In this document: in pieces, positions 1-26,457 of the stretch | How the letters are laid out: every line of letters begins with the position of its first letter | Numbering within the stretch: the stretch's first letter is position 1 | Source: an uncultured bacterium | GTDB taxonomy: Bacteria > Acidobacteriota > Thermoanaerobaculia > Multivoradales > JAHZIX01 | Length of the DNA: 64,000 nucleotides | Direction of reading: 5' to 3' | NCBI GenBank assembly: GCA_965368975.1 | Contig: CBDUPA010000010.1 | Coordinates: 1-64,000 of the forward strand | Position numbers and translations under genes: made by a program | Notes under the pieces: generated by a model | Seen by the model: the letters and a program-made list of their open reading frames with translations, nothing else | Databases searched by the model: none | What the model was told of the DNA's origin: nothing

Positions 1-3000
1 CGGGCAGGTCGTGCCCGGGGTCGGGGGCAGCGCCGGTGTCACGTCCGGCCTGGGTTTCACGTCCGGTCTGGGTAGGGGCACCCAACCGCTCGGCCAGCGA
101 GCGCACCGTCGGGAACTGGAAGAGATCCGTCACCGACGCGTCCAACCCCAGGTCCTCGCGCAGCCGGTGGTGTAGGTCGAGCAGTAGCAACGAGTGACCG
201 CCGAGGTCGAAGAAATTGGCGTCCAGGGCTTCGCGCTCCAGCCACGCCGCGTCGAGTCCGAGCAGCTCCGCCCACAGCGCGGCTAACCGGGATTGCAGAT
301 CGTCGGCGGTCGCGGTCACCTCAGCGGCTTGGGTTTCCGTTGCTTGGGGAGGAGCAGTTCCCTGCATGGCCGGCAGCGGTAGTGCCAGCAACGCCCTGCG
401 ATCGATCTTGCCGTTGACGTTGAGCGGCAACGCGTCGAGACACACCAGCGTCGAGGGCACCATGAACGCGGGCAGGCGATCGGCAAGGTACGCTCGCAGA
501 TCGACCGGAGACGGCTCTGGGCCCACCCAATACGCCACCAACCGGCCCTCTCCGTCCACCCCCGGCCGCACCAGCACCACCGCTTCCTGCACCGCCGGGT
601 GTGCTGCCAGCGCGCTGGCGATCTCGTCCGGCTCGATGCGGAAGCCGCGCAGCTTCACCTGCTGATCGATGCGCCCCAGGAACTCGACGGCACCGTCGGC
701 GCGGCGGCGCACCAGGTCGCCGCTCCGGTACACCCGCCGCCCCGGCCGCGCGGTCCAGGCGTGCGGTACGAAAACGGCAGCGGTGAGAGCCGGGCGGTCG
801 AGGTAGCCGCGCGCCAGTCGATCGCCCCCGATGCGCAGCTCGCCAGCCACGCCCAGTGGCTGCAAGCGTCCACGGCGATCCGTGACGTGCAGCGTCGTGG
901 CGGCGATCGGCCGTCCGATCGGCACTTCGCGCCCTGGCGGTGGCGCCATGCCAACCGGGTGCCAGCTGGCGAAGGTGGTGGCCTCGGTGGGGCCGTAGAC
1001 GTGCAGCAAGCGTCGTGGCGGCGCGGCGCCCTCGAACAGGCGCGCCAGCGCCACCGGGTCCATGCGCTCACCACCGGTGAGCAGGCAGCGCAGTCCGCTG
1101 AAGGCGCGCGGCGCGTGGCGCGCCAGGCGCAGGCACAAGGCGGTGGTCAAGAACAGGACGCTGATGCGCTCGGCCGCCAGCACCGCCGGCAGCTCGGACG
1201 GCGACAAGGTGACACGCGGCGGCAGCAGGACCACAGCGGCGCCGTGCAGCAGTGGCCCCCAGATCTCGAAGGTGGCGGCGTCGAAGGACGGCGTGGCGGC
1301 GTGCGCGACTCGGTCGCCTGGAGTCAGCTGCAGGTAGTCGGTGCGGCGCACCAGGCGCAACACGCCGCGATGCGTCGCCGCGACGCCTTTGGGGGTGCCA
1401 GTAGAGCCGGAGGTGTAGATGACGTAGGCCAGCCGATCGCCGCCGAGGTATCGGCTGTGAGGCTCCAGTGCCTGACCGGGCGGAGACGCCGGCACGGCTT
1501 CGACCTGGAGACACGGCAGCTCGGGCGCCAGGGTCGCGACGCGCGCCTGGGCTGACGACCCGGCCACCACCAGCACGGCACCGCTGTCGCGCAGCAGCAG
1601 AGCGAGGCGATCGTCCGGGTAGGCGGGATCGAGCGGCACGTAAGCTCCGCCAGCCAGCGTCACAGCCAGCATCGAAACAACCATCTCGGGCGAGCGCTCG
1701 AACAGCAAGCCGACGCGCTGCTCGGGCTCGAGCCCGGCCGCACGCAGCTGGCGCGCCAGCGCCTGCACCCGCTGCGCCAGCTCGGCGTAGGTCCAGCGCA
1801 CCGGCTCCGGTTCGTCCATGGCTCCGTTTCTGGAAGCCGGCTGTAGAAGTGCTGGTTGCTGAAGAGCTGGCGCCGACGGGGTCGCACGCGCTTGCTCCAG
1901 GAAAGCTTGGGCGAGGCTCTCTTCAGACAGGCGCACGGCATCAGCACCTTCCTCGCGCAGCAGCTGGTGACGCTCGGGACGACTGAGCAGCGGCAACTCG
2001 GTCCACGCGCGCGGCGGGTGCGTCGACGCCGTTAGCAGAGCTTCGAGCAGCACGCGCACGTGACCGGCGAGGCGGCCGGCGGTGGTGAGGTCGAAGATCT
2101 CGGCGTCGAAGTGCAGAGCACCTTGCACTGCCCCGCTGGCCGTGCGGCTGAGCAGCAACGACAGATCCAAGACGGCGCTCGCCGAGTCGACCGACAGCGG
2201 CGTCACCGACACTCCCTCCGCGAGCTGCAACGCCGTACCAGACGGAGCCGGTTCGAGCGCGAAGACGCTACGGAAGAGCGGGTTGGCGCCAGCCGTGCGC
2301 TTCGGCGCCACCGCCGCGACAACCTGTTCGAACGGCACGTGGCGGCGCTCGTAGGCGTCGAGCACGGCGTCGCGCGTGCGCGTCAGCAACTCGGCGCCGG
2401 AGGGCACATCGTGCAACTGCAAACGCAGCGGCATGGTGTTGACGAAGCAGCCGACCACGGGCTCCAGCTCGGGACGATCCCGACCCGACAGCGGAATGCC
2501 GGTGACGACATCCATGGTATCCGCCCAGCGGGCCTGCACTGCCAGGAACGCGGCGAGCACGGCGGCGAAGGCCGAGACCCCGCCATCGAGCGCGTCCAGG
2601 CCGGCGACCCACGGGCCGTCCCAATGCACGCTCCAACGTCCGCCGCGGCTAGTCGGCGTGTGTGGTCGCGATCGATCCAGCGGCAGCTCGGGTGACGCGG
2701 CTCCGTCCAGGCGCTGGCGCCAGGCATCGAGCTGTGCGGCAGCCTCCGGCGTCTCCAACCACTGCCGCTGGGCACGCGCGAAGTCGCTGTACTGCAGGGG
2801 TAGCGACGGCAGGGCTGTGAGATCGCCTCGGCGGTGCGCAACGTAGTTCCGCCCCAGCTCGCGCAGCACCACGGCTGCCGACGCGGCGTCGAAGCCCAAG
2901 TGATGGACGCCGAGCACGAGCGCTTGTCGGTGCGATCCGGCACGCAGCAGCAAGGCGCGCCACAGCGGTCCGGTCTCCGGCGCGAAGGGACGGCCCAGGC

Positions 3001-6000
3001 CGGCGTGCGCCAGGCGTCGCAGGTGCGCGTCCCTGTCGGCAGATGGCAGGGCCTGCAGGTCGACGACGGCCAAGCCGCGCCGAGGCAGGCCCGTACCGCT
3101 GGTCAGCACTTGCTGCACCGGCCGTCCCTGGCGCCCCGGGCCCTGACTGCGCGGATAGCGCGTGCGCAGGACGCCCTGACGCGCCACGACGGCGTCCCAG
3201 GCCCGCTCCAGAGCAGCAAGTTCGAGCGTACCCTCGAGCAGCCAGGATCCGCCAGAGTTGTAGCGGGGACTCGACGGTTGCAGCTGGTGCAGCAACCAGA
3301 AGCGTTCCTGCACACTGGAGACGGGGGCCTCGAAGGGAGGTGACTCGTGGCTTGCGAGCAACCGCAAGCCGCCCGTGTCGCCCGTTTCGGGCGTAGCCGT
3401 GTCGGTCGTGTCCTGCGTGTCCTCCGCACCGATACCTGCGGCACGCAGCGTCGCCGCCAGGCGGCGCGGCGTCGAGATCGTGAAGAGCGTACGCAGCGTC
3501 ACCTCGACGCGCCACTCGGCCCGCACTCGCGCCAGCAGCCGCACGCCGAGCAGCGAGTGCCCGCCGAGGGCGAAGAAGTCGTCCTGCGCACCGACCGGAC
3601 CGGAGTGATCCAAGACCTCGGCAAAGAAGGCGCACAGCCGGCGCTCCAGCTCATCGGCGGGCTGAACATGCGCGGCCGGGTCGAGCTGAAGTGCTTCCGC
3701 GGCGACCGGACGTGACGCCAGCTGGAGACGATCGATCTTGCCAGACGGCGTGGAAGGCAGGGATTCGACCGACACCAGAACGGGCCGCATGTAGACCGGA
3801 AGCTTCGTCGCGATGTGGTCCTGCAGACCAGCGAGCGGCGATCCGGCCGCGGCCGCCGAGTCGGCCGTACGCGGCACGACGTAGGCCACCAACTGTGCCT
3901 CGCCGGTGCTCGGACCCGCGTCGCGAGCGCATTCCGGAGCGCCTTCCGGAGCGGCACGCACAACCACCACCGCCACAGCCGCTACCGACGGATGGGTGTT
4001 GAGGGCCGCCTCGACCTCCTCCGGCTCGACGCGGGCACCGCGGATCTTGACCTGGCGGTCGGCGCGACCCAGGAAGTCCAGCTCGCCGTCCGGACGCCAG
4101 CGCAGCAGGTCGCCGGAGCGGTAGGCGCGTGCACCAGCCTGCCCGTGCGGTGCCCACGGATCGGGGACGAAGGAACGCGCGGTGCGCGCTGGCCGGCCGA
4201 GATAGCCGCGGCCGACGCCGGCGCCACCGATCCACAGCTCCCCGGGCACACCCACCGGCACCGGCTCACCGACGGGGTCGACCAGCGTCAAGTGGACGTT
4301 CTCGAGCGCACGGCCGATCGACGGCGGGCGCGGGTCGAGCGAGCGCACGCGCAGGCGGTTGGCCGTCACCGCGATCTCGGCCGGGCCGTAGAGATTGTAC
4401 AGCTCGAAGGGCAGCGGTCGGCGCGGCACTGCCACCAGGCGATCGCCGCCGGTCGCCAGCACGCGCAGCGTCGAACGCCGGGCGCTGACGTCGGGCAGCC
4501 GCAGCAGCGCTTCCAGCTGCGGCGTCGGTAGCAGGACCGAGGTCAAGCCCTGACGGCGGATCCAGGCCCACGTCTCAACAGGATCGAGGCGCACGTCTTC
4601 GTGGTCCGGATGACACAGCGTCGATCCCACGAGCAGGCCGCAGAAGGCGTCGAGCACGATCGGATCGAAGGACGGCGTCATCAACTGCGCATGGCGGTCG
4701 GCAGGGCCGAAGCCACACATTCGCAGGTGGCTGAAAACGACGTTGGCGAAGGCACGGCGGTGCACCATGACGCCCTTGGGCTGACCTGTAGAACCCGAAG
4801 TGTAGATGACGTAGGCGAGACCGAGGGGCGAGGTCTCGACTGGTGGCAACACCGATGCCGATGCCTTCGCGCGGCCGGAGGCACGCTCTCCCAGCCTCCC
4901 CTCACCCGACCTCCGGCCATCGAGCCGCAAGCGCAACCGCCAGACCGGCGGCAGGTCGACGGCGTCCTCGATTCCCGGCGAGGTGATCAACACGGCCGCC
5001 TCGGCATCGCGCAACAGGTCGGCACGGCGCGCGGCGGGCAACGACGGATCGAGCGACAGGAAGGCGGTGCCGGCGCGCAACGCGGCGAGGCAGGCGATCG
5101 TGTAGGCGGGCGAGCGCGGCAGCTGGACGGCGACCAGCGCTTCCGTCCCCGCATGAGCCCCCAGGCGGCGTAGATCTGCCGCCAAGGCGTCGACCCGGCG
5201 CTGCATCTCGCCGTAGCTCAGGTGTCGAGAGCATCTGGCCGAGCCGGAGCGTCCCGTCTCCGAGAGCAACGCCACAGCCTCAGGCCACTGGCCAGCGCGC
5301 GCGGCGATCACCGTCTCGACGTCTTCCTGGCGGACATCCTCCTGGCCGACAGCGATCGCCCCCGGAACGTCGTTCCATTCCCGCTGCAGCTGGTGCACTT
5401 CGCTGCGGCTGAGCCAGGGCAGGCGGGCGGCGGGATGGTCCGGCTGCTCGACAGCCGCGGCAAGCAAGAGACTCAGGCGGCGCGCCAGGCGCTCGGCCGT
5501 AGTGGCATCGAAAAGATCCGCGTCGTACTGCAGCTGACCGCTCAGCGGCCCCAGTCGCCCTGCCCCTTCAGCGTCGACCTCCGCCAGAGAGGTCTCCGCC
5601 AAAGAGAACGTGAGATCGAAGGTCGCCGAGCCGGCATCGACAGGCAGGCGACCCATGCGCACACCGCCGGCCAGATCAGGAGTCGAGACCAGGCCCGACT
5701 GCAACACCAGCAGGACATTGAACAGCGGCGCCGAGGCGCCTTGCTGCAGGCGCTCGTAGGGCAACTCGCCGTGTGACTGCGCCGCCGCCACGACGCGTCC
5801 GGCGCGCGCCACGAGTTGCTGGAAGCTCGGCGAGGTGGCAACGGGGCTCTCGTGGGCGTCTGGCCCCGGGGGCGTGCCCGGCCCGAGATCGAGACGCAGG
5901 ACCAGGGTGTTGACGAAGCAGCCGACCAGGTCGTCCAGCTCACCGGCGGCGCTGTCGCGACCGGCTACCGGCGTCCCCAACACGACATCCCGCTGCCCCG

Positions 6001-7072
6001 CGAGCCGGCCCAGCAACAACGCCAACGTCGCGAAAGCCCCGGCAAAGCGAGTGGTTCCGGCCGCTGCGCACAAGCGCGTCAGGGCCGCGTCCACGCAAGC
6101 CGCTACGGGTACAGGCACGCTGCCGCCGCGCCGCTCTGGCACTTCGGTTCCTGCTTCGAGATCCGCGACCGGAGCGCGGTCCATCGGCAGTTCGAGCGTC
6201 GAGACCCCGTCCAGCTGCTGACGCCACCAGGCCAGCAAGGCGGCACCGGTCTCGGAACCCTCCGCCAGTCGCTGACGTTGCCAGGCGGCAACGTCGACGT
6301 AGCGCAACGGCAGCGCGGCCCAAGTCGGTTGCTGGCCCAGCTGCCGCACCGCGTACGCGTGTGCCAGCTCACGCAGCAGGATGCCGAAGGACCAGCCGTC
6401 GACCGCGATGTGGTGCAGGCACAGCCCCAGCACCCAGGACGCGGGAGTCCCCGGCTCCGGGAGCCGGCGCTCCGGGAGCCGGCGGAAGAGGACGAGGCGG
6501 ACGGGCGGTCGACGCCCGGACAGCAAGTCGAAAGGCTGACGGCGCCAGGCGCGAATGGCGCGTCGCAGGTGGGCTTGCTGGTCGTGCGCCGGCAGACCCG
6601 AGACATCGACCACCGGCAGAGCTGCCGCCCCTGGAGCTGAGGACACAGCGGCGACCGGCTCGATGCGCTGGCGCGGCTGGCCGTCGGCGTCTTCGAAGTA
6701 GACGGTGCGCAGCGACGCGTGGCGCGCGACCAGGTCGGACCAGGCGGTACGCAGCGCCCTCACATCGAGCAGCTGCTCGGAAGAGGACGCGTCGAGCGTC
6801 AGGTTGAGGCCGACATGGTACGCACTCGTCGCCGGACTCAGTCGCTGCTCCAGCCACAAGCGCTCCTGCGCGAAGGACAGCTGGAAAGGACCGTCACCGG
6901 GTAGACGGGTCGGACCTGCCGCTTTCCCGGCACCGGCACGCCGGGTCCGCTCGGCGTCCAGCTTCGCAGCCACGAGTGCCCGCTGGCGTGGAGACAGGCG
7001 AGCCAGGCGGTCTTGTAACTGAGGATCTGCGAGCCGATCTTGCTCCTGGGCCTCGCGTTCCGCGTCACTCAC
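1..7072 (-). CDS. Non-ribosomal peptide synthetase, C-A-T-C-A-T..., 3' end beyond the left edge (partial)
   Basis: Absent from the ORF track because there is no in-window stop. Hand translation from GTG 7072 (GTGA overlap with the upstream stop) stays in one frame at every point checked. Motifs: LSFAQERLW and HHIAVDG (~6400), YTSGSTGQPKG (~4800), FFALGGHSL (~3560), HHLGFDA (~2895), YTSGSTGTPKG (~1410), FFDLGGHSL (~200). Confidence 0.95.
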   Translation of the reverse strand, partial: MSDAEREAQEQDRLADPQLQDRLARLSPRQRALVAAKLDAERTRRAGAGKAAGPTRLPGDGPFQLSFAQERLWLEQRLSPATSAYHVGLNLTLDASSSEQLLDVRALRTAWSDLVARHASLRTVYFEDADGQPRQRIEPVAAVSSAPGAAALPVVDVSGLPAHDQQAHLRRAIRAWRRQPFDLLSGRRPPVRLVLFRRLPERRLPEPGTPASWVLGLCLHHIAVDGWSFGILLRELAHAYAVRQLGQQPTWAALPLRYVDVAAWQRQRLAEGSETGAALLAWWRQQLDGVSTLELPMDRAPVADLEAGTEVPERRGGSVPVPVAACVDAALTRLCAAAGTTRFAGAFATLALLLGRLAGQRDVVLGTPVAGRDSAAGELDDLVGCFVNTLVLRLDLGPGTPPGPDAHESPVATSPSFQQLVARAGRVVAAAQSHGELPYERLQQGASAPLFNVLLVLQSGLVSTPDLAGGVRMGRLPVDAGSATFDLTFSLAETSLAEVDAEGAGRLGPLSGQLQYDADLFDATTAERLARRLSLLLAAAVEQPDHPAARLPWLSRSEVHQLQREWNDVPGAIAVGQEDVRQEDVETVIAARAGQWPEAVALLSETGRSGSARCSRHLSYGEMQRRVDALAADLRRLGAHAGTEALVAVQLPRSPAYTIACLAALRAGTAFLSLDPSLPAARRADLLRDAEAAVLITSPGIEDAVDLPPVWRLRLRLDGRRSGEGRLGERASGRAKASASVLPPVETSPLGLAYVIYTSGSTGQPKGVMVHRRAFANVVFSHLRMCGFGPADRHAQLMTPSFDPIVLDAFCGLLVGSTLCHPDHEDVRLDPVETWAWIRRQGLTSVLLPTPQLEALLRLPDVSARRSTLRVLATGGDRLVAVPRRPLPFELYNLYGPAEIAVTANRLRVRSLDPRPPSIGRALENVHLTLVDPVGEPVPVGVPGELWIGGAGVGRGYLGRPARTARSFVPDPWAPHGQAGARAYRSGDLLRWRPDGELDFLGRADRQVKIRGARVEPEEVEAALNTHPSVAAVAVVVVRAAPEGAPECARDAGPSTGEAQLVAYVVPRTADSAAAAGSPLAGLQDHIATKLPVYMRPVLVSVESLPSTPSGKIDRLQLASRPVAAEALQLDPAAHVQPADELERRLCAFFAEVLDHSGPVGAQDDFFALGGHSLLGVRLLARVRAEWRVEVTLRTLFTISTPRRLAATLRAAGIGAEDTQDTTDTATPETGDTGGLRLLASHESPPFEAPVSSVQERFWLLHQLQPSSPRYNSGGSWLLEGTLELAALERAWDAVVARQGVLRTRYPRSQGPGRQGRPVQQVLTSGTGLPRRGLAVVDLQALPSADRDAHLRRLAHAGLGRPFAPETGPLWRALLLRAGSHRQALVLGVHHLGFDAASAAVVLRELGRNYVAHRRGDLTALPSLPLQYSDFARAQRQWLETPEAAAQLDAWRQRLDGAASPELPLDRSRPHTPTSRGGRWSVHWDGPWVAGLDALDGGVSAFAAVLAAFLAVQARWADTMDVVTGIPLSGRDRPELEPVVGCFVNTMPLRLQLHDVPSGAELLTRTRDAVLDAYERRHVPFEQVVAAVAPKRTAGANPLFRSVFALEPAPSGTALQLAEGVSVTPLSVDSASAVLDLSLLLSRTASGAVQGALHFDAEIFDLTTAGRLAGHVRVLLEALLTASTHPPRAWTELPLLSRPERHQLLREEGADAVRLSEESLAQAFLEQARATPSAPALQQPALLQPASRNGAMDEPEPVRWTYAELAQRVQALARQLRAAGLEPEQRVGLLFERSPEMVVSMLAVTLAGGAYVPLDPAYPDDRLALLLRDSGAVLVVAGSSAQARVATLAPELPCLQVEAVPASPPGQALEPHSRYLGGDRLAYVIYTSGSTGTPKGVAATHRGVLRLVRRTDYLQLTPGDRVAHAATPSFDAATFEIWGPLLHGAAVVLLPPRVTLSPSELPAVLAAERISVLFLTTALCLRLARHAPRAFSGLRCLLTGGERMDPVALARLFEGAAPPRRLLHVYGPTEATTFASWHPVGMAPPPGREVPIGRPIAATTLHVTDRRGRLQPLGVAGELRIGGDRLARGYLDRPALTAAVFVPHAWTARPGRRVYRSGDLVRRRADGAVEFLGRIDQQVKLRGFRIEPDEIASALAAHPAVQEAVVLVRPGVDGEGRLVAYWVGPEPSPVDLRAYLADRLPAFMVPSTLVCLDALPLNVNGKIDRRALLALPLPAMQGTAPPQATETQAAEVTATADDLQSRLAALWAELLGLDAAWLEREALDANFFDLGGHSLLLLDLHHRLREDLGLDASVTDLFQFPTVRSLAERLGAPTQTGRETQAGRDTGAAPDPGHDLP
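67..83 (+). repeat. Half copy of the same REP-like element in the linker after a T domain
   Basis: TCTGGGTAGGGGCACCC is identical over 17 nt to 7812-7828 and 16045-16061. Confidence 0.55.
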
Positions 7073-10000
7073 GAAGCCACCTCCGCGGTCAGCTCACGTA
7101 GCTGCGCTTCCAGGTCTTCATCGCTCAATCCCTCGACCTCGGCGAGCACCGCTGCCAGCTCGTCAGCCCCCTGGTCAAGAGAGGGCTCTTCGATCTGCGG
7201 TGCGCCGGCGACCGCGGCAGCGCCGTTCCCCTGCTCGGCTTGGATCTGAGCCGTCAGGCCGGCGATGGTCGGGAACTCGAACAGGTGCGCCATCGGCAGT
7301 TCGACGTCGAAGGTCTGGCGCAGCCGCGCCATCAGGCGGCTGCCCATCAGCGAATGACCGCCGAGCTCGAAGAAGTTGTCGTGCCGTCCCGGCGCACTGC
7401 CCCCAGACGTGCCCAGGAACAGCCCCCAGATCTCGGCCACCTGGGCTTCGAGCGGATCCTGCGGCTCTCCTGTTGCAGACTCGGGGGTGGTGGACGCGCC
7501 GCCCAAGGGCCCGGTACTCTGCGAGACGCTCGAGTTCGGCTGCGCTCGAGTCCCTGCAGAGGACTCGGCAGCAGCACCACCCCGCCATAGCGCCAGGCGC
7601 GCCGCCAGATCACCACTGGCGACAGCAATCTGTTCGAGTGCCCGGCCGAGACCCTCGCCGGCCGCCAGGGTACGACGGAACGCGTCGACGCTTTCGGCCG
7701 GGGTCATCAGGTAGCGCGTCAGGCTATTGGTGGGCGTGGCGGAGGGGCCATCCTCCTCGCCGATGCGCGTCCAGGCATCCCAATTGGTCGACAGCCAGCG
7801 GGTCGCAACCCTCTGGGTAGGGGCACCCCCGTGTGGGTGCCCTCCGGTGTGAGCAGCCGCGTAGGCGTCCAGATAGAGATTCGCCGCCGCGTAGCCGGCG
7901 AAGCCGACGCCCCCAAGCACCGACGCCAGCGACGACAGCAGGACGCAGAAGCGCGGCTCGATTCCGTGTTCGACGCGCAGCTCGTCGAGCATGCGGGCCA
8001 GGCGGCGGGTGCCAGTGATCTTGGGTCGGAACTGTGCGGCCGATAGCTCGCGATCCGTGTCGGGCAGGCGGTGCAACAGGCCCTTGCCCTCCCCGACTCC
8101 GTCCGAACGCAGCAGCTCGCCAGCACCGTGGACGACACCGTCCAGCCGCCCCCAGCGCGCCGCGATCTCGGCCGCCAGGTCCGTCATGGCGGCCCGGTCG
8201 GCAACGTCGGCACGGTGCGTCACGACCTCGCCACCCTGCGCGCGCGCCAGGCTCTCCAACTCGGCCAGGCGACGTAACGCCGGCCGGGCGTCGGGATGCT
8301 CCGGCATCGAGGCGGTCCAGGCGGCGCGCGGCGGCAGCTCGGAGCGGTGGGTCAAGATGACTGTGGCCTGATGGTCGCGCAACAACCATTCCGCCAGCCG
8401 CAAGCCGACGTTCCCCAGGCCACCGGTGAGCAGGTAGACGCCACGGCGTGTGGGCGTCGGCTCTCCCGCGTCTACGGGAGCAACCAAGGACCCGGCAGCC
8501 AGAGACTCGGCAGCCAGAGACAAGCTCTCGAAACCCTGGCACCAGCGTCGACCGCCACGCCAGGCGACGACGGTCGCGTCCGACGTGTCGGTGGCTTCGG
8601 CTTGCAAGATGCGCGCGACGGTGCCGGTATCCAGAGCCCCAGCATCCAGAGCCCCACTATCCAGAAGCGCAGCATCCAGGTCGACGGCACGGCAGCGCAC
8701 GTGGCGCGCGTCGCTTTCCTGCGGCAGCACCAGCAACGGCCCGAGTGCCGGTGCTCGCTCGGGAACCACCCGGTCGCCCGGCAGCACGGCATGCAGGTGC
8801 TGGCCGGCATAGAGCAGCACCGGCAGTGCGTCGCCGGGCTGCTGCGCCAGCTCGGCCAGGCGACGCGCGACGGCCAGCACGGCACCATAGCCGCGCCACA
8901 GCTCGGCTTCCAGCGCTGGTTCGACGTGAGGCGGCGGCGCACCGAGTCCGGTCAGCACGGCGATGGTGCTGAGGGCTTCCAGATCGATCTCCTCCACGTC
9001 CGTGCTCCCTCCCACCGCCTCCAGCACCCGCACCGACACCCCGTCCTCGATCAGCCGCGCGCGCAGCGCTGACGCTACCGCCTGGCTGGTCGCATCGGCG
9101 TCGAGCACCAGCAGCCAGCCGCGTGCATCTTCCGCTACCGGTCGCGGTGTAGCCAAGGGCCGCTGGCGCCAGGCCGGCGTCCAGAACCAGCGCGTCACAT
9201 CCGTTTCCTTGGGCGGCAAGCGGCGCATGGAGGAAGCCGCCGTGTCTCCTCTCGATGAGTGCTCGGTGCGGCGGAAGGGCACCCACAGGCTTTCGGGATC
9301 GGGACTCTCGAAGGGATACCCCGGCAACCGCAGCTTGCACCGGCGCTCGTCCGTCTGGCCACAGAATGCGTTCCAATCGACCGCCGCACCAGCCGCCCAC
9401 AAGCGCGCCAGCGTGGTCAGGGCGAAGCCGACATCGCTCTGCGGGTCCTTGGGATGGCGCAGCGAGGTCAGCACCGGCTGATCCGGCCGCCAGCTCGGGT
9501 GACGGCGCGCCAGCGTGCTCAGGGTATGCCCCGGTCCTGCTTCGACGAGAGCGGCGTCAGGATCGTCGAGCAGCACGCCGACGCCCTCGGCATAGCGCAC
9601 CGTGCCGCGCAGGTGCCGGCGCCAGTAGCCAGGGTCGCGCACGTCGTCCTCGGTGATCCAGGTACCGGTGACGTTGGAGATGTAGGGGATGCGCGGCGCG
9701 TGCAGATCGAGAGAGGCAACGAAGGCTTCGAAGCGCTGCAGGATCGGCTCGACCATCGACGAGTGCGCCGCCACCTCGATGTGCAGGCGACGCACCTCCA
9801 GCCCCTCGGCCGCCAGGCGCACGCGCAGCGCCTCGATACGTTCGACCGGTCCCGAGGCGACGCACAGGTCAGGCGCGTTGACGGCGGCGATCGACAGGGG
9901 TCCCTCACCGACGCGCGCCGCAGCTTCCTCGCGCAAGCGGGCACGCAGCGCCGCCTCTCCCAGCGGCACGCTGAGCATGGCTCCGGCGGGTAGCTGGTCG

Positions 10001-13000
10001 AACAAGCGCCCACGCAGGGCGACCAGCGCCAGCGCATCGTCCAGAGACACGACCTCGGCCAGCGCCGCGGCCACGTACTCGCCCAGGCTGTGCCCGATCA
10101 TCGCCGACGGCACCAACCCCCAGCTCATCCACAGGCCGGCCAGCGCGTAGGAGGTGGCGAAGAGCGCCGGCAGGGCATAGGAGGTGCGCTCGATGACCCG
10201 GGAGACAGCGTCCTCGTACTTCCGGGTCGGTTCCGTGGAGGGATAGAGCAGCTGGCGCAGGTCCCAGGCACCGAAGGGAGAGTACTCGGGCTCCGCCTGG
10301 GCCCGTTCTTCGAAGTGCGTGCGCAGGCCCTCGGCACAGGCGTCGATGTGATGCCGGTACACGGGCTCGACGCGGTACAGCTCTTCGCCCATGTGCGCGT
10401 ATTGCGCACCGCCCCCCGGGAACAGAAAGACGAGCGACCGTCGACGGGCATCGGCCTCGGGTCCGGGGGCGCGCAGCCAACGCGCCTCGTCGTCGCCGCG
10501 CAGAATCGGTAGCAGCTCGCGGGTCGCCTTACTGGTCTCCATATTGGTCGCGGGCACCACCACGGCCGCGCGTCGCGGGTGCTCGAAGCGTCCGACCTGC
10601 AAGGTGTAGGCGACGTCCGCTAGCTCTTCTTCCACACTGCTTGCCGCCAAGTGCTCCGCCAGCCGAGCCCCCGTCGCTCGCAGGGCGGACGGCGTTCGGG
10701 CCGACAGCGGCAGGAGCACAAACGGCCGCCGCGGCCCCTCGGCACTCCCGGCTTCGGCAGCGGCTGCGTCGAGGCTCTGCTCGACGACGACATGGGCATT
10801 GGTCCCTCCGACGCCCAGCGAGCTGACGCCGGCACGCCGTGGCTCGCCGTCCGCCACGGGCCAGGGCACCGGCTCGGCGTTGACGTAGAAGGGACTGGTG
10901 TCGAGGTCGAGCTGTGGATGCGGCGCCTGGAAGTTCGGGTGCGGCGGGATGACGCCCTCGTGCACCGCCAGCGCCGCCTTGATCAGGCCCGCGACGCCGG
11001 CACCGGCATTCAGGTGCCCGACGTTGGCCTTGATCGCCCCCAGCGCCACGTGGCCACGCGCCTCGACGCCGGCGAAGGCGCGGCGCAGGCCGGCGACCTC
11101 GATCGGATCGCCGAGCGCGGTGCCGGTGCCGTGGGTCTCGATGAAGCGTACGCTGTCCGCTTCGACGCCGGCACGCGCCAGCGCCGCCACCACCACCGCC
11201 GCCTGGCCGTCGACGCTGGGCGCCGTGAAACCGACTTTGGCGGCGGCGTCGTTGTTGATCGCCGAACCCCGGATGACAGCGTAGATCGAATCCCCGTCGG
11301 CGCGCGCGTCGGCCAGCCGCTTGAGCACGACGACACCGCCGCCGTCACCTCCGACCGTTCCGGCGGCCTCGGCGTCGAACGGCCGGCAACGACCGTCGGG
11401 CGACACAATGTGCCCTTCCTGGAACAGGTAGCCGTGTTTGCGCAGGCCGCCCACCGTCACGCCACCGGCCAGCGCCGCGTCGCAGTCGCCGGCCAGCAGG
11501 CTCTGGCATGCCAGGTGCACCGCCACCAGCGACGTCGAGCACGCGGTCTGCACGTTGACCGCCGGCCCAGTGAGCCGTAGCTTGTAGGCCACGCGTGTCG
11601 CCAGGCTGTCGCCCATGTTGGCCAGCTGCAATTGGTAGCGGCCTACGGCCTCGGCCAGCTCGGGATGGGCCTGCAGGTTGTTCAGGTAGGGCGAACCGGT
11701 GCCAAAGCCCGCAAAAACACCGACGTGTCCAGGCCCCGGGCCGGATCGCCCGACGAAACGTCGAGGATCGAGGCCGGCATCCTCCAGCGCATGGACCGAC
11801 ATCTCGAGCAGCAAGCGGTGCTGCGGATCGAGGATGCGCGCCTCGCCAGCGGCGTAGTCGAAGTACGCCGCATCGAAGCGCTCGACGCCGTCGAGTACGC
11901 CGAACACCGGCACATAGTCGGGCGAATGTGCCTCGGCAGGGTCGACGCCTTCGGCGATCATCTCGTCGACCTCGAAGCGCGAGAAACCCTCGAAGCCGTC
12001 GAGCAGGCGACGCCACAACTCGGGCACGTCGACGGCGCCTGGGAAGCGGCCAGCCATGCCGACGATCGCGATGCCACCGTCCGTGCCCCAACCCGCTTGC
12101 TGCAGCGGGACTTCCCGTTGCGCATCGACCACCACGCCCGACTCCATCTTCGGGTCACCGATCGACGGATCACGGCTCAACTCGGCCGCTAGCGCGCGTA
12201 CCGTCGGCAGCCGGAACAGCTCGACGACGGTCAAACCGGCGGTCAGCTCCGGCAGCTCGCGGCGCAGGCGTTCGTACACTTCGAGCAACAACATCGAATG
12301 ACCACCGAGGTCGAAGAAGGTGTCCTCGACGCCAACGTGCTCCAGTCCCAGCACCTGGCACCACAGCGCGGCGATCTGTCGTTCCAGCTTCGATCCCGGC
12401 GCCGTACCCCCGCCCGCGGCCGCGCTCCGTTGCAGCTCGCGCCGCTCCTGCGTCTCCAGCCGGTGCGCCAGAGCCTTGCGATCCAACTTGCCGCTGGTGT
12501 TGACCGGCAGCTCGTCGAGCCACAGATAGCGTGCCGGCACCATGAACTCCGGGAGCCGCTCGCCGAGAGCTTGCCGGAGTGTGCCGTCGTCGGCGTGCTC
12601 CGGCAGGGACTCCTTGGCCGGCGTCGCCACCAGGAACGCTGCCAGGCGCTGCACTTCCTGCGCTCCGAACGGCAGTACCGCCGCCGCGGCGATGCCCGAC
12701 AGGTCGGTGAGGGCGCGCTCGATCTCGCCGGTCTCGATGCGGAAGCCGCGCAACTTGAGCTGCCCGTCGAGGCGTCCGAGGAACTCGAGGCGACCATCGG
12801 CGCGCCGACGGCAGAGATCGCCGGAGCGGTACAGACGGCACCCGGGGCCTCCGGCGTTGAACGGATCGGGGATGAAGACCTCGGCGGTGAGCCGCGGACG
12901 GCGCAGGTAGCCGCGCGCCAGGCCGGGACCACCGATACACAACTCACCAGGGACACCAGCCGGTTGCAACTGCAGCTTCCGATCAAGCACGTGCAACTCG

Positions 13001-16000
13001 GTGTTGCCGATCGGCACGCCGATGGGGGTCAGCGTCTCGGTGACGACGTCATCAAGGCGGGCTGGGATGCGCTGGCGCGACGACACCACCGCCGCCTCCG
13101 TCGGGCCGTAGACGTTGTACAGATTGCCTGGCGGCGTCGCCGAACCGGCGACCGCGGTGGCGGCGTGCGGGTCGAGAGCTTCGCCGCCGACCACCACCAC
13201 GCGCATGCCGCCGAACGCCTCCGGCCCCTGGCGCGCCAGGCGGTGGAAGACGGACGCGGTCAGGCACATGACGTCGACGCCAGCCTGCGCGACGCCTTGC
13301 GGCGTCAACATTACCTGCGGCGACAGCACCGTCAGACAACCGCCGTTGGTCAGGGGACCCCAGATCTCACAGCAGGAGGCATCGAAGGAGATGCTCGCCA
13401 GCTGCGCTACGCGCTCGCCCGGCCGGTGCTGGAAGAAGTTCTGCCGCGTCAAGCGCAGGATGGCCTGGTGCGGCAAACCGGCTCCCTTGGGTTGCCCCGT
13501 GGAACCGGACGTGTAAATGACGTAGGCCAGATGCTGGTCCGAGTCGGCAAGTGCTTCTTGGCCTGGTGCCGGCACGGCGGGAGCCGAGGAAGACGACACC
13601 CAGGCGGAGGACTGCAGCAAACGATCCAGATCCCAGCACCGCACGCCTTCGGGCACCAAGCCGGTGAAGCGCTCGGTCAGGCGCGCGTCCGCCAGCACCT
13701 GGCGCACCCCCGCGTCCTCGAGCACGAAGCGCAAGCGGTCGTCGGGATACTCGGGATCGAGCGGCAGGTAGGCACCACCGGCCTTGAGGATGCCCAGCAT
13801 GCCGGCCAGCATCGCCGCGCGACGCTCCACCGCCAGGCCGACGATCGATTCACGGCCCACGCCCGCGTCACGCAGACGACGCGCCACCGCCTCGGCGCGC
13901 TGGTCGAGCTCACGGTAGGTCCAGCACAGCGGCGCCTCCTCGCCGTTCGGTCCGCACACCGTGCGATCTTCCACCGCCGGTGCGCCCGGCGTGCGCGCCA
14001 CCCAGCTGGCGAAATGACTGTCGAGGGTGGCAGTGGGCAGTGCCACGAAGGTGTCGTTGCACTCCCACAACAGCTGGTGCCGCTCTGCTGGTGCCAGCAA
14101 CGGCAACGCCGAGAGGCGCGTTGCAGCGCCGGTCGACGCCGTCACGCTGGCTAGCAGCGTGACGTACTGCTGCCACATACGACGCATGGTGGTGGCGTCG
14201 AAGAGGTCGGCGTTGTACTCCCAGAGAAAGCGCAGTTCCTCGTAGCTCTCCTCCCCCTTTGCTCGTGCACTGCCCGCCCGCTGCGACGCCCGCGGCATGG
14301 CGATGACGTTCAGGTCCGCCTTGGCCGAGCCGTTGTGCGGAATGATGAACTCGCCCTGCAAGCCGCCGAAGTCGAAGTCGGGCAGCGGTGAGTCGTGGAA
14401 GCTGAAGGTCACCTGCAGCATCGGCGTGATGCCCGGTCGCCGCTCCGGCTGCAGGATCTCGACCACCTTGCGCAGCGGAAAGTCCTGGTGAGCGTGCGCT
14501 TCCAGCACGGTGCGCCGCACCCGCCGCAGCAGCTCGCCGAAGGTCGGGTCACCTCCGGCGTCGGTGCGCAGCACCACCGTGTTGACGATCATGCCGATCA
14601 TCGGCTCGATCTCGCGCAGCCGCCGGTTGGCGAAGGCGCTGCCCACCGGCAAGTCGGCACTGCCGGTGTAGCGGTGCAGTAACACGTAGTAGGCCGCCAA
14701 GCAGAGGAAGAAGAGCGTCACGCCTTGCTGCCGGCCGAGCGCCTGCAGGTCACGATAGAGCCACGGCGGGATCAGCTCCTGCACGATGCCGCCTTGGAAG
14801 CCGAAGACCTCCGGCCGCGGGTGGTCCGTCGGCAGATCGAGCATCGGCGGCGCCCCGGCCAGCTTCTGCGTCCAGAAAGCCAGCTGGCCGTCGAGTCCGC
14901 CGCTGTCGTACCAGCGTCGCTGCCAGCGCGCAAAATCCTGGTACTGCACCGGCAGCTCCGGCAAGGGAGACGGCTCTCCGTGCAGAAACGCTTCGTACAA
15001 GACCTGCATCTCGCGCAGGATCAGGCCGACCGACCAGCCGTCGTGGACGAAGTGCTGCTCGACCTGCAACAGGTACTGCACGCGCGGCGCTTGCCGCCCC
15101 CTTTCAAGCCCCTTCTCTTCGAGGTCCTTCTCTTCGAAGAAGAGCGTCCAGCGCAGCAGCGGCAGATCCATGAAGTCGAACGGCCGGTGGATCTCGCGCT
15201 GGATCAGCCGGTCCTGCTCGACCTTGCGCGCCGCGACCGGCAGACCCGTCAGGTCGACCACTGGAATGGTCACCCGCCATGGCTCGGCCAGCACTTGCAC
15301 CGGACGCCCATCCGGTCCGGCCGGAAAGCGCGTGTGCAGCACCTCGTGGCGACGCACGATCTCGGTGAAGGCACGTTCGAGCACGTCGAGCCGCAGGTCC
15401 CCGGTCAGCCGCTGGCCGAACTGCGTGTTGTAGGCCAGATTCGTCGGTGCCAGCCGCCCGAGGAACCACACCTGCTCCTGGGTGAACGACAGTGGTGCCA
15501 CACCGTCGCGCGGCGGTGGCAAGATCGGCGGAATCACCGTCTCCTCGACGGCGTGGTTCTCCCCGCGGGAATCGATCCAGCGGGCCAGCTCGGCCACCGT
15601 TGGCCCGTCGTAGACCACCATCGCCGGCAACTGGACATCGAACTCCTTGCGCACGCGCGTGATCAGCCGTGCCACCACCAGCGAGTGCGCCCCGAGCTGC
15701 ATCAGATCCTCGCCGGTGCCGACCCGGTCGAGGCCGAGCAGTTCCTGGACGATGGCCACCACGGCGGCTTCGGTCGGCGTCGCGGGTGCGTCGAGATCAG
15801 CGTCGGTGCGACTGTCCTCAGGATCCGGTAGCAGCTGCTCCGCCAGCGCCCGACGATCGACCTTGCCGCTGGCGTTGTGCGGTAGGCGGTCGAGCCAGAC
15901 CAGCGTCGAGGGCACCATGTAGGGTGGTAGGGAGGCTTCCAGGTGGCGTCGGAGATCCTGCTCGGGATCTACCCCCACCCACCCAGGGCGGCCACATGGG

Positions 16001-17679
16001 GCCGCCCCTACACCAGAACCGAGCTGTACAGAACCGGGCTGTGATCTGGGTAGGGGCACCCCCATGTGGGTGCCCTCTGGGGCGGGCGGGGTTCCCGGCG
16101 CGACGGGGCCTTTCGGCTGCGCCGATCCCGCCACCCAGGCCACCAGCCGCGCATCTCCCGCCACCTCCCGCACCTCGACCACCGCGTCGCGTACGCCTGG
16201 ATGTGCCAGCAACACCGCCTCGATCTCGCCCAACTCGATGCGGAAGCCCCGCACCTTCACCTGCTGGTCGATCCGTCCCAGGAACTCGATCTGTCCCACT
16301 GCTGGGCCCGACGCGGCACGCCGCACCAGGTCCCCGCTGTGATAGCGCCGCGCCCCCGGGACCGGGTTGCCGTCCGGCCCCGACGCGGGATCGGGACGAA
16401 ACCGCTCCGCCGTCAAACACGGACGACCGAGATAGCCGCGCCCCAGTCCCAAGCCCCCGAGCACCAACTCGCCCGACTCACCGTTGGGCAGTTCTTGACC
16501 CTCGCGGTCGAGCACGTAGAGCGAGCGCCCGGGCAAGGCGTAGCCAATCGGGATGCGCTCCAGCTTGTCGAGCGCCGGTAGCGTCCGCGGCAGTGGATAG
16601 ATCAGCGCCGACACCGTCGTTTCGGAGGGGCCATAGGCGTTGATCACCTGGACGCGCGCCGGCCCCGTTGCCGCTCCTGGTCCGGATCGCCCAACCGTCA
16701 GCTGCGTCCACAACCGGGCCGGCACCGGCAGCATGGCTTCTCCGCCGGCCAGCACACAGCGCAGCGAACCGGTATCCACGCGAGCGGCATCGATCCCGCC
16801 CGATGCCAGCAGCGCCGTCTCCTGCGCCACCGCCTGCCAGTACGCCGTCGACATGTTGAGCACCGTCACGCCCAGGCGTGCCGCCCGCGCGAAGAACTCC
16901 GCCGGATGCCACAGTTCGCGCACCAGGATCAACGCGCCGCCATTGCACAGCGGCTGCCACAGCTGCTCCACCGACAGATCGAACGCCAGCGTCGCCACCA
17001 GCAGCCGTCGCTCCGCGCTGTCGTCTGCACCCCGTGGCACTGAGCCCCCCCGCCGTTCCGACCAGCCCGAGCGTCGCTGCAACTGCCCCTGGCGCACCAT
17101 GTGCGCCGCCGCCACCCCGTGCGGGATCACCACCGCCTTCGGCCGTCCCGTCGAGCCCGAGGTGTAGATCAGGTAGCCGGTCGTCTCAGCGTGCGCCAGC
17201 TCGGGCAGCGGTGTCGCATCCGTGACCTCGGCCAGCAGTCGAGCCACGCGCCGCGCCAACACCGCCGGCAATCGATCCTCGAACCCCGCATTGGTCAAGG
17301 CCAGCGCCGCGCCGCTGTCCTCCAGCAAGAAGGTCATGCGAGCGTCCGGATTGCCCGGATCGAGCGGAAGATACGCGCCCCCCGCCTTGGCAATCGCCAG
17401 CAACGCCACCGTCAATTCCAGGCAGCGCGGCAGACAGACTCCCACCGGCACTTCCGGCCCCACGCCCCGCAGGCGCAGTGCGCGCGCGAGGCGCGTGCTC
17501 AGACGGTCGAGTTCGCCATAGCTGAGAACGCGCTCGCAGCCCGACGCCGCGTCTTCCACGACCGCCACCGCGTCCGGCCGTCGAGATACCCACCACGAGA
17601 ACACCTGGTGCAGACGAAGATCTTCGCTCTCACCGCTCGACCCCATAGCGAGCACTTCCACGTTTTCGCTCCAAACCAT
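7069..17679 (-). CDS. Hybrid NRPS-PKS: A-T-C-A-T-KS-AT-KR-ACP
   Basis: Two A domains (YTSGSTGRPK, YTSGSTGQPK); T motifs LGAHSL and LGGHSM; C motif EQHFVHDG; KS TACSTS, HGTGT and KANVGHL; AT GHSLG...VAAHS; KR TGGLGNVG and YAAAN; ACP LGGHSL. ATG 17679 is preferred to TTG 17685 because GAGGAG lies 8 nt upstream. Confidence 0.96.
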   Translation of the reverse strand: MVWSENVEVLAMGSSGESEDLRLHQVFSWWVSRRPDAVAVVEDAASGCERVLSYGELDRLSTRLARALRLRGVGPEVPVGVCLPRCLELTVALLAIAKAGGAYLPLDPGNPDARMTFLLEDSGAALALTNAGFEDRLPAVLARRVARLLAEVTDATPLPELAHAETTGYLIYTSGSTGRPKAVVIPHGVAAAHMVRQGQLQRRSGWSERRGGSVPRGADDSAERRLLVATLAFDLSVEQLWQPLCNGGALILVRELWHPAEFFARAARLGVTVLNMSTAYWQAVAQETALLASGGIDAARVDTGSLRCVLAGGEAMLPVPARLWTQLTVGRSGPGAATGPARVQVINAYGPSETTVSALIYPLPRTLPALDKLERIPIGYALPGRSLYVLDREGQELPNGESGELVLGGLGLGRGYLGRPCLTAERFRPDPASGPDGNPVPGARRYHSGDLVRRAASGPAVGQIEFLGRIDQQVKVRGFRIELGEIEAVLLAHPGVRDAVVEVREVAGDARLVAWVAGSAQPKGPVAPGTPPAPEGTHMGVPLPRSQPGSVQLGSGVGAAPCGRPGWVGVDPEQDLRRHLEASLPPYMVPSTLVWLDRLPHNASGKVDRRALAEQLLPDPEDSRTDADLDAPATPTEAAVVAIVQELLGLDRVGTGEDLMQLGAHSLVVARLITRVRKEFDVQLPAMVVYDGPTVAELARWIDSRGENHAVEETVIPPILPPPRDGVAPLSFTQEQVWFLGRLAPTNLAYNTQFGQRLTGDLRLDVLERAFTEIVRRHEVLHTRFPAGPDGRPVQVLAEPWRVTIPVVDLTGLPVAARKVEQDRLIQREIHRPFDFMDLPLLRWTLFFEEKDLEEKGLERGRQAPRVQYLLQVEQHFVHDGWSVGLILREMQVLYEAFLHGEPSPLPELPVQYQDFARWQRRWYDSGGLDGQLAFWTQKLAGAPPMLDLPTDHPRPEVFGFQGGIVQELIPPWLYRDLQALGRQQGVTLFFLCLAAYYVLLHRYTGSADLPVGSAFANRRLREIEPMIGMIVNTVVLRTDAGGDPTFGELLRRVRRTVLEAHAHQDFPLRKVVEILQPERRPGITPMLQVTFSFHDSPLPDFDFGGLQGEFIIPHNGSAKADLNVIAMPRASQRAGSARAKGEESYEELRFLWEYNADLFDATTMRRMWQQYVTLLASVTASTGAATRLSALPLLAPAERHQLLWECNDTFVALPTATLDSHFASWVARTPGAPAVEDRTVCGPNGEEAPLCWTYRELDQRAEAVARRLRDAGVGRESIVGLAVERRAAMLAGMLGILKAGGAYLPLDPEYPDDRLRFVLEDAGVRQVLADARLTERFTGLVPEGVRCWDLDRLLQSSAWVSSSSAPAVPAPGQEALADSDQHLAYVIYTSGSTGQPKGAGLPHQAILRLTRQNFFQHRPGERVAQLASISFDASCCEIWGPLTNGGCLTVLSPQVMLTPQGVAQAGVDVMCLTASVFHRLARQGPEAFGGMRVVVVGGEALDPHAATAVAGSATPPGNLYNVYGPTEAAVVSSRQRIPARLDDVVTETLTPIGVPIGNTELHVLDRKLQLQPAGVPGELCIGGPGLARGYLRRPRLTAEVFIPDPFNAGGPGCRLYRSGDLCRRRADGRLEFLGRLDGQLKLRGFRIETGEIERALTDLSGIAAAAVLPFGAQEVQRLAAFLVATPAKESLPEHADDGTLRQALGERLPEFMVPARYLWLDELPVNTSGKLDRKALAHRLETQERRELQRSAAAGGGTAPGSKLERQIAALWCQVLGLEHVGVEDTFFDLGGHSMLLLEVYERLRRELPELTAGLTVVELFRLPTVRALAAELSRDPSIGDPKMESGVVVDAQREVPLQQAGWGTDGGIAIVGMAGRFPGAVDVPELWRRLLDGFEGFSRFEVDEMIAEGVDPAEAHSPDYVPVFGVLDGVERFDAAYFDYAAGEARILDPQHRLLLEMSVHALEDAGLDPRRFVGRSGPGPGHVGVFAGFGTGSPYLNNLQAHPELAEAVGRYQLQLANMGDSLATRVAYKLRLTGPAVNVQTACSTSLVAVHLACQSLLAGDCDAALAGGVTVGGLRKHGYLFQEGHIVSPDGRCRPFDAEAAGTVGGDGGGVVVLKRLADARADGDSIYAVIRGSAINNDAAAKVGFTAPSVDGQAAVVVAALARAGVEADSVRFIETHGTGTALGDPIEVAGLRRAFAGVEARGHVALGAIKANVGHLNAGAGVAGLIKAALAVHEGVIPPHPNFQAPHPQLDLDTSPFYVNAEPVPWPVADGEPRRAGVSSLGVGGTNAHVVVEQSLDAAAAEAGSAEGPRRPFVLLPLSARTPSALRATGARLAEHLAASSVEEELADVAYTLQVGRFEHPRRAAVVVPATNMETSKATRELLPILRGDDEARWLRAPGPEADARRRSLVFLFPGGGAQYAHMGEELYRVEPVYRHHIDACAEGLRTHFEERAQAEPEYSPFGAWDLRQLLYPSTEPTRKYEDAVSRVIERTSYALPALFATSYALAGLWMSWGLVPSAMIGHSLGEYVAAALAEVVSLDDALALVALRGRLFDQLPAGAMLSVPLGEAALRARLREEAAARVGEGPLSIAAVNAPDLCVASGPVERIEALRVRLAAEGLEVRRLHIEVAAHSSMVEPILQRFEAFVASLDLHAPRIPYISNVTGTWITEDDVRDPGYWRRHLRGTVRYAEGVGVLLDDPDAALVEAGPGHTLSTLARRHPSWRPDQPVLTSLRHPKDPQSDVGFALTTLARLWAAGAAVDWNAFCGQTDERRCKLRLPGYPFESPDPESLWVPFRRTEHSSRGDTAASSMRRLPPKETDVTRWFWTPAWRQRPLATPRPVAEDARGWLLVLDADATSQAVASALRARLIEDGVSVRVLEAVGGSTDVEEIDLEALSTIAVLTGLGAPPPHVEPALEAELWRGYGAVLAVARRLAELAQQPGDALPVLLYAGQHLHAVLPGDRVVPERAPALGPLLVLPQESDARHVRCRAVDLDAALLDSGALDAGALDTGTVARILQAEATDTSDATVVAWRGGRRWCQGFESLSLAAESLAAGSLVAPVDAGEPTPTRRGVYLLTGGLGNVGLRLAEWLLRDHQATVILTHRSELPPRAAWTASMPEHPDARPALRRLAELESLARAQGGEVVTHRADVADRAAMTDLAAEIAARWGRLDGVVHGAGELLRSDGVGEGKGLLHRLPDTDRELSAAQFRPKITGTRRLARMLDELRVEHGIEPRFCVLLSSLASVLGGVGFAGYAAANLYLDAYAAAHTGGHPHGGAPTQRVATRWLSTNWDAWTRIGEEDGPSATPTNSLTRYLMTPAESVDAFRRTLAAGEGLGRALEQIAVASGDLAARLALWRGGAAAESSAGTRAQPNSSVSQSTGPLGGASTTPESATGEPQDPLEAQVAEIWGLFLGTSGGSAPGRHDNFFELGGHSLMGSRLMARLRQTFDVELPMAHLFEFPTIAGLTAQIQAEQGNGAAAVAGAPQIEEPSLDQGADELAAVLAEVEGLSDEDLEAQLRELTAEVAS
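7817..7842 (+). repeat. GTAG-family REP-like palindrome inside the KR coding region
   Basis: GTAG-GGGCACCC-CCGTGT-GGGTGCCC, a perfect 8-bp stem. 7812-7847 matches 16045-16080 at 34/36 nt. Confidence 0.8.
15986..16075. repeat. Inverted pair of GTAG REP-like palindromes (BIME/REPIN-like) inside the first A domain
   Basis: Minus copy GTAG-GGGCGGCC-CCATGT-GGCCGCCC (16011-15986) and plus copy GTAG-GGGCACCC-CCATGT-GGGTGCCC (16050-16075), 38 nt apart. Confidence 0.8.
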
Positions 17680-17800
17680 CTGCAATACTCCTCAGCGTCT
17701 CGCTGAAGTGGATTCCGAAGAACTGGCTTGTAGCTACGTGGAGTGTCGGGGAAGGTTGCGGGCGGGGAGGAGAAGCGGAGATGAGCTGAGAGGCAAGCAG

Positions 17801-24221: not shown

Positions 24222-24251
24222 TTGAATTTAGCAGATTCCGCCTGCTATGTT
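24222..24251 (+). promoter_or_regulatory. Candidate sigma70 promoter with an overlapping inverted repeat for the 24388 operon
   Basis: TTGAAT-N18-TATGTT with an extended -10 TG. TAGCAG-N7-CTGCTA (24229-24247) overlaps the spacer. Confidence 0.35.
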
Positions 24252-24387
24252 GGACCTGTCAACATTCCAAGCTTTCGCAGCCAACCGTCCCTGCTCGGCG
24301 ACGGAATTCAGTGTCTACCCAAGTAGTGCACCCTGCCGAGACCATCTGGAGAGACCCGGCGCCAATGCCAGCTCCCAAGGAGAGACC

Positions 24388-26403: not shown

Positions 26404-26457
26404 TGCTGCCCGAGCTTGTAGACCCAGCCCAACTGTAGACAGCCTTTGGAGATCGCC

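Follow-up and report, generated by a model that had tools for sequence, protein, structure and literature searches.

A glutamine variant of the ureido-forming signature in the condensation domain of a hybrid peptide-polyketide synthetase from an uncultured acidobacterium

Can a condensation (C) domain that departs by one residue from the published signature of ureido-forming domains still join two amino acids through a urea bond? The question is raised by a hybrid nonribosomal peptide synthetase-polyketide synthase (NRPS-PKS) gene of an uncultured bacterium of the Acidobacteriota (lineage JAHZIX01), located in a stretch of 64,000 nucleotides (contig CBDUPA010000010.1 of assembly GCA_965368975.1, positions 1 to 64,000), hereafter the window. 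The signature EHHXXHDG was described for the active site of ureido-forming C domains, named Curea, including those for syringolin, anabaenopeptin and pseudovibriamide (Yu and van der Donk, 2024; PMC11212132), as the original prediction for this locus had stated. The domain in the window reads EQHFVHDG. We consider it a probable functional member of the ureido-forming branch, with a probability of about two in three, and most likely the glutamine (Gln877) is a tolerated, near-neutral substitution at a position without a known catalytic role that would leave the ureido chemistry intact. The gene, the domain and its motif are as follows.

7069..17685, minus strand: hybrid NRPS-PKS gene of order A-T-C-A-T-KS-AT-KR-ACP, an open reading frame of 3538 amino acids from a TTG start
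14068..15504, minus strand: Condensation domain, residues 728-1206, of the ureido-forming (Curea) clade (Pfam E 1.4e-75; trees)
15037..15060, minus strand: motif E876-Q877-H878-F-V-H881-D882-G883, residues 876-883, from the translation

As originally predicted, nucleotides 15037-15060 of the minus strand translate to EQHFVHDG, which with its flanks reads LQVEQHFVHDGWSV. The motif is a genuine part of the domain, not a string that arose by chance. The codons are GAG CAG CAC TTC GTC CAC GAC GGC, and the Gln codon, CAG at 15055-15057, is a single third-position transversion away from the His codon CAC. The residues that surround the glutamine include those known to matter in SnaA, in which the substitutions E744A and H749A brought the ureido product down to the detection limit and H746A, at the second His, abolished it (PMC11212132). 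The equivalents of all three are kept: E876 (SnaA E744), in a column where Glu occurs in 0 of the 1741 ordinary C domains that we aligned; H878 (SnaA H746), the second, catalytic His; and H881 (SnaA H749), which lies directly before the Asp-Gly pair, also intact (D882 and G883), and has a frequency of 0.00 in the ordinary rows. Only the first His, the equivalent of SnaA H745, differs. In solved C domains this first His is structural. Because it is none of the three positions at which SnaA proved sensitive, the comparative evidence leans to tolerance of the Gln rather than to the altered or abolished chemistry that the original prediction had considered. We filed the domain as a variant within the Curea clade rather than as a literal match because the main text of the SnaA study does not mention H745. 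Catalysis or substrate positioning has been assigned to the second His (PMC11546977, PMC10510592), and the first is not strictly kept in active OaaC-type C domains, (D/H)HxxxDS (PMC13310621), is missing from terminal C domains, SHxxxDx (PMC10510592), and is replaced in the CHxxxDG and PHxxxDG motifs of zeamine synthetases (PMC3547906). A literature search found the strings QHxxxDG, EQHxxHDG and EQHXXXDG in no paper, and EHHXXHDG solely in PMC11212132 and its preprint.

The position of the domain in the protein suits a urea bond. Pfam identified one Condensation, two AMP-binding and three PP-binding domains, then the ketosynthase (KS), acyltransferase (AT) and ketoreductase (KR). From the order of these matches and the carrier serine motifs at residues 665, 1794 and 3442 we derived the order A-T-C-A-T-KS-AT-KR-ACP, whose first five domains match the initiating A-T-C-A-T arrangement that had been proposed. 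The Condensation domain is the sole C domain of the protein, with none ahead of A1, and its location between the loading A-T and the second A-T would present both amino acids carrier-bound and with free amines. In the translation one can see the cysteine of the KS, the serines of the carrier domains and the core motifs of the A domains. The database copy (P0370) is the same protein from an ATG start at 17679, two codons later, with 3536 amino acids and otherwise identical. The remaining domains of the gene are listed below.

15811..17613, minus strand: loading adenylation domain A1, about residues 25-625 (approximate limits from core motifs; A4, A5 and A10 located)
15574..15765, minus strand: carrier domain T1, residues 641-704, serine motif at residue 665 (Pfam and motif)
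12487..14010, minus strand: adenylation domain A2, residues 1226-1733 (Pfam)
12184..12396, minus strand: carrier domain T2 (approximate), serine motif at residue 1794 (Pfam and motif)
10930..12072, minus strand: ketosynthase, residues 1872-2252 (Pfam)
9514..10431, minus strand: acyltransferase, residues 2419-2724 (Pfam)
7849..8442, minus strand: ketoreductase, residues 3082-3279 (Pfam)
7240..7452, minus strand: C-terminal carrier domain (approximate), serine motif at residue 3442 (Pfam and motif)

Two in-frame inserts also mark the protein. One is a Pro/Gly-rich stretch of 58 amino acids late in A1, ahead of the A10 lysine (15955-16128, minus strand); the other is a charged stretch of 18 amino acids (residues 851-868; 15082..15135, minus strand) in the loop that leads into the motif strand of the C domain. 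In the alignment, both are missing from the consensus of the nearest relatives and from Txo2.

Relatives of the domain were collected from protein and genome searches. Protein searches rank by summed score and multi-C megasynthetases crowded out single-C relatives; therefore, each C-domain stretch was rescored alone (1558 stretches in 367 retrieved proteins). The 24 best stretches were all of the E/H-flanked motif type and 21 of them read exactly E-H-H-x-x-H-D-G, the exceptions being P0042 (EDH), P0210 (without the +5 His) and P0039 (without the Glu). The first ordinary C domain ranked 25th, at 387 bits versus 507 for the best, and the closest relative (P0013) shared 55% identity. A plasmid search with the whole C domain returned records that were all below 60% identity among the 60 listed matches. 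With a 40-amino-acid motif query, the plasmid search supplied as a reference the plasmid of Microbulbifer sp. MKSA007 (L001), on which lies the mbp cluster that directs synthesis of pseudobulbiferamides, a group of ureidopeptides (PMC10616845). Three other loci from the motif search (L002, L003 and L004) turned out to be ordinary C domains and were discarded as ureido references. Last, species-representative genomes were scanned for E-x-H-x-x-H-D-G-W, giving at least 120 stretches, 80 with full flanks; the rows listed did not include the window's own genome. Among the matches listed, 85 were in C domains and 35 were chance matches outside them. The 85 include a Pseudovibrio locus (L020) with a motif context nearly identical to that of Microbulbifer, several Nostoc/Microcystis loci and one Pseudomonas fragariae locus.

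Every tree grouped the domain with these references. In a FastTree phylogeny of 122 rows, a 66-row clade with local support of 100 holds the domain and all references. A quick IQ-TREE analysis (model LG+G4) of 90 rows, rooted on 14 ordinary domains, joined all signature-type rows in one clade (SH-aLRT 95) and, within it, a 61-row clade (SH-aLRT 100) whose members include the domain, Microbulbifer L001, Pseudovibrio L020, the Nostoc/Microcystis loci and the P. fragariae locus. Here the domain falls inside a 7-row clade (97) of EHHFVHDGWS domains, a subclade recovered with support of 86/96 in a careful IQ-TREE analysis of 50 rows. The careful tree also separated the core clade from six ordinary domains and from a subgroup with Thr after the Trp (UFBoot 100, SH-aLRT 99). 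This subgroup, EHHL[IV]HDGWT (P0024 residues 1070-1541, P0056 residues 1094-1551, and loci L018, L037, L060, L073 and L076), diverges between the core of the ureido clade and the ordinary C domains and is found in C-A-T-C-A-T proteins, after a first elongation-type module. Thus, the domain does not fall in the ordinary LCL clade but stands apart from the 14 ordinary rows of the 90-row tree and the 6 of the 50-row tree. Its original assignment to the ureido type is supported by its place in a clade of ureidopeptide synthetases and by the clade residues that it keeps outside the motif.

These residues were identified in a query-anchored alignment of 61 clade rows (EHH..HDGW without a following Thr), 23 rows of the Thr-bearing subgroup and the 1741 ordinary rows; the reference group is thus defined by its motif, and the off-motif features come from this analysis rather than from published criteria. 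The most discriminating columns outside the motif include W127, M313, F377-H378-D379, N399, P412 and W436 (P0002 numbering). The domain carries the clade consensus at 24 of the 30 top discriminating columns (22 of 28 when the two group-defining motif columns are set aside). Its log-odds score without the motif region is +73; among the 1741 ordinary rows the median is -287, and 7 exceed zero and 1 exceeds 73. Of 53 columns conserved in at least 90% of the clade, it keeps 51 (the median among clade members is 0.94), and the two mismatches are the first His itself (H158Q) and R65H. Judged from its sequence, the C domain is not degenerate. The alignment also exposed a second clade-specific stretch:

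14389..14403, minus strand: S-F-H-D-S, residues 1095-1099 (alignment)

Its Phe, His and Asp are present in 89%, 90% and 97% of the 61 clade rows, respectively, versus 12%, 5% and 7% of the ordinary C domains. The signature section and Discussion of PMC11212132 do not mention the stretch, a candidate contributor to the additional chemistry of the clade.

How exceptional is the glutamine? The original prediction called it unusual, which holds in that it is a minority residue: the 85 listed C-domain matches of the scan comprise 80 EHH, 4 EQH and 1 EDH, and the first-His column of 88 non-redundant E..H..HDGW rows has 84 His, 3 Gln and 1 Asp. It is not unique, however, and recurs in metagenome-assembled genomes of Longimicrobium (L024 and L089) and Lysobacter (L047 and L064); the EDH locus (L008) is from a Bacilli assembly of the same kind. 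Ordinary C domains have His at this column in 1709 of 1741 rows, the 32 others including 9 Met, 8 Gln and 3 Asp. All Gln codons at the first-His position are CAG. The two Lysobacter loci are 52% identical over 1256 codons with a dN/dS of 0.57, and for the Longimicrobium pair 209 codons gave 84% identity and a dN/dS of 0.38. Uninterrupted A-T-C-A frames run through the variant loci that have full flanks (L024, L047, L064 and the EDH locus L008). The trees need four changes at the first-His column, three to Gln and one to Asp. In the careful 50-row set, the approximately unbiased (AU) test rejected a single clade of the four EQH rows (dlnL 112.9, p 0.00014). The identities of the window domain agree with separate origins: 53-55% to its EHH neighbors, 49% to L024 and 36-38% to the Lysobacter loci. 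Apart from the first His, no column has a residue shared by the EQH rows that is found in less than 20% of the EHH rows. Because the Gln is kept in at least two other lineages and the rest of the domain is intact, we favor an active ureido-former. As a separate observation, both Lysobacter loci (L047, JAHCAU010000023.1; L064, SSGH01000045.1) read EQHYVHDGWS and are sister (100/99) to the Pseudovibrio/Microbulbifer pseudovibriamide-type domain, which hints at related ureidopeptide pathways in Lysobacter.

Comparison with characterized systems gives a similar picture. SnaA of Stackebrandtia nassauensis (threopeptin; PMC11212132) is likewise an initiating A-T-C-A-T protein followed by PKS extension and, by motif and domain order rather than by direct alignment, shares the Glu, the second His, the +5 His, the Asp, the Gly and the Ser after the Trp, although it reads EHHLVHDG where the window has EQHFVHDG. 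Unlike in SnaA, the PKS module in the window is fused and has a KR, and no PEARL/LanB-like gene was seen within the window. The first C domain of PppA and MbpA (pseudovibriamide and pseudobulbiferamide; L020 and L001) belongs to the same clade and occupies the same place after the loading A-T, yet it reads EHHLVHDGWS, is 36-38% identical to the window domain and has the two Lysobacter EQH loci, not the window domain, as its nearest sampled relatives. Cyanobacterial loci of the anabaenopeptin type (AptA/ApnA), assigned by organism only, read EHHMVHDGWS and are in the same clade, across the basal split from the window domain; a Nostoc representative (L039) is 48% identical to it. SylC (syringolin) is a reported ureido-forming domain with the same signature, contrasted in the Discussion of PMC11212132 with two-T modules like SnaA; its presumed counterpart here is the P. 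fragariae locus (EHHLIHDGWS), 627 bases in the clade that were likewise assigned by organism only. Among solved structures, the best sequence matches are the ordinary LCL domains Txo1 and Txo2 (PDB 6oyf and 6p1j; 246 and 236 bits), and no Curea structure was recognized among the PDB matches. The Txo domains have the same fold family and catalytic His-Asp-Gly as the window domain, whereas ordinary LCL domains have no Glu preceding the motif core, no His following it and no F-H-D stretch, and lie outside the clade.

An unlikely alternative, though the one that survives best, is a Curea-clade domain in which Gln877 alters or weakens the reaction through slower turnover, a shifted balance of urea and amide or another CO2-derived linkage. 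The first His is under constraint, judging from its presence in 84 of the 88 non-redundant rows and 80 of the 85 listed scan domains; its neighbors on either side, E876 and H878, correspond to residues that SnaA requires for activity, and its own role in Curea domains is left open in the main text on SnaA (PMC11212132). On the other hand, in each of two other lineages a pair of species has kept the Gln, within open frames whose dN/dS is below 1, the Gln is unaccompanied by a second-site change, and the rest of the domain is conserved as in typical clade members.

Less probable still is that the EHHxxHDG-type clade is not uniformly ureido-forming, and that the subclade of the window domain forms a normal peptide bond or has some other activity. 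Few characterized members underlie the function assigned to the clade, none of them in this 7-row subclade, and antiSMASH reportedly calls the SnaA domain LCL (PMC11212132). Moreover, signature-bearing domains also follow a C-A-T module (P0015, P0024 and P0056), where the donor would lack a free alpha-amine. Against this, the basal split of the clade has reference-type rows in both of its branches, the N-terminally complete relatives in the subclade (P0031, P0364 and P0336) all have A-T ahead of the C domain, and no C domain of other function in MIBiG is reported to carry the signature (PMC11212132).

We give a slimmer chance again to the glutamine being a convergent adaptation, with at least three origins (the lineage of the window, Lysobacter and Longimicrobium), that would retune the capture of CO2 or bicarbonate or the handling of the N-carboxy intermediate, with an altered linkage or donor preference and with S-F-H-D-S in the same carboxylation site. 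Least likely is a one-base sequencing or assembly error, or an inactive and decaying domain. In its favor, CAG is one transversion from CAC, the single database record is identical to the window and the gene has two unusual inserts. Against it, the same codon encodes a Gln at this site in four independently assembled sequences from other organisms, the 10.6-kb reading frame is open, the KS cysteine, carrier serines and A-domain core motifs are in place, and the clade-conserved columns are nearly all kept.

Several observations count against the functional ureido-forming domain that we prefer. The literal signature is broken at its second position by the Gln, in a study that terms EHHXXHDG "sufficient and necessary" on its examples and whose main text contains no occurrence of SnaA H745 (PMC11212132). 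The score of +73 is in the lower part of the clade range (leave-one-out median 169, minimum -53). With the quick 90-row set, one row of which is partial, a single clade of five EQH rows was not rejected by the AU test (dlnL 48.2, p 0.176), and in both AU tests the EQH group was chosen with a tree already in view. The sequence rests on a single database record identical to the window. A full-length protein search found no orthologue: among proteins between 1945 and 6192 amino acids long, the best non-self match covers 63% of the query at 45% identity. In this lineage the Gln is therefore represented by one sequence. SnaA, SylC and AptA are absent from the trees, in which the mbp/ppp-type rows alone have a published product and the Nostoc/Microcystis and P. 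fragariae rows serve as references by organism only. SnaA required an MbtH-like partner (PMC11212132), and a six-frame scan for the MbtH-like motif found none in the window, off which the cluster runs. Finally, the published signature also turns up outside initiating modules, in domains of C-A-T-C-A-T proteins (P0015, within the core clade, is C-A-T-C-A-T-TE); signature and ureido function may not correspond one to one.

If the domain is an active ureido-former, a pathway can be proposed in which A1 would load amino acid 1 on T1 and A2 would load amino acid 2 on T2. The C domain would then join both alpha-amines via a carbonyl from bicarbonate or CO2, after the model of SnaA and SylC (PMC11212132). 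This step would leave a free carboxylate on amino acid 1 and a ureido-dipeptide on T2, that is, a reversal of the chain. From the domain order, KS-AT-KR would add and reduce one C2 unit and convert residue 2 to a gamma-amino-beta-hydroxy (statine-like) unit. We infer both the urea bond and the product of the A-T-C-A-T-KS-AT-KR-ACP protein. The chain would be continued by the modules of the next gene:

2..7072, minus strand: next NRPS gene, C-A-T-C-A-T, downstream of the hybrid gene and running off the left end of the window (open reading frame and Pfam)

The substrates received no call. Using motif anchors and positions of the GrsA numbering, the specificity residues are D-L-E-N-L-G-A-V-S-K for A1 and D-A-C-C-V-G-V-V-V-K for A2; MbpA A1, extracted as a control, gave D-A-F-T-V-A-A-V-W-K. 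The AT domain (9514-10431, minus strand) has V-A-A-H downstream of GHSLGE. Malonyl- and methylmalonyl-specific AT domains usually have HAFH or YASH at that site, so that the motif does not point clearly to one extender unit. The gene is an orphan, its best non-self relative being only 45% identical, and its predicted product is a ureido-dipeptide with the second residue extended to a statine-like unit. Statine units occur in protease inhibitors. So do ureido groups, as in the comparison with antipain (PMC11212132).

The variant matters for genome mining as well. A literal EHHXXHDG rule would miss 5 of the 85 listed clade-type domains (4 EQH and 1 EDH) in addition to the window domain, and a looser rule (E-x-H-x-x-H-D-G-W plus clade residues) or a tree would catch them. 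EQH domains also offer a natural test of the first His in ureido formation, a role that the SnaA mutagenesis leaves open. Unless the Gln proves to matter, the picture of the Curea mechanism is unchanged.

The surroundings of the hybrid gene add a few observations. The two C motifs of the next NRPS gene are HHIAVDGWS and HHLGFDAAS, the second of which (2885-2905, minus strand) has Asp-Ala for Asp-Gly. Upstream of the hybrid gene we found no promoter-like or terminator-like site; the upstream gene (17950-21432, minus strand) is not an NRPS gene and encodes 1160 amino acids with a signal-peptide-like start, several CxxCH heme-binding motifs and weak cytochrome c matches. Elsewhere in the window, an open reading frame at 45079-47178 (plus strand) matches Pfam NAD-GH (PF10712; E 1.4e-206) but is antisense to a gene for a 637-amino-acid Hsp70/DnaK protein (45241-47154, minus strand; HSP70 E 3.6e-266). 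It is most likely a shadow frame of dnaK rather than a glutamate dehydrogenase gene. Three consecutive open reading frames of 718, 554 and 665 amino acids without a Pfam match (24247-30137, plus strand) adjoin a TonB-dependent receptor gene (22178-24172, minus strand), and the product of 32586-33911 (plus strand) fuses a bacterial XendoU-type endoribonuclease domain to a lamin-tail domain.

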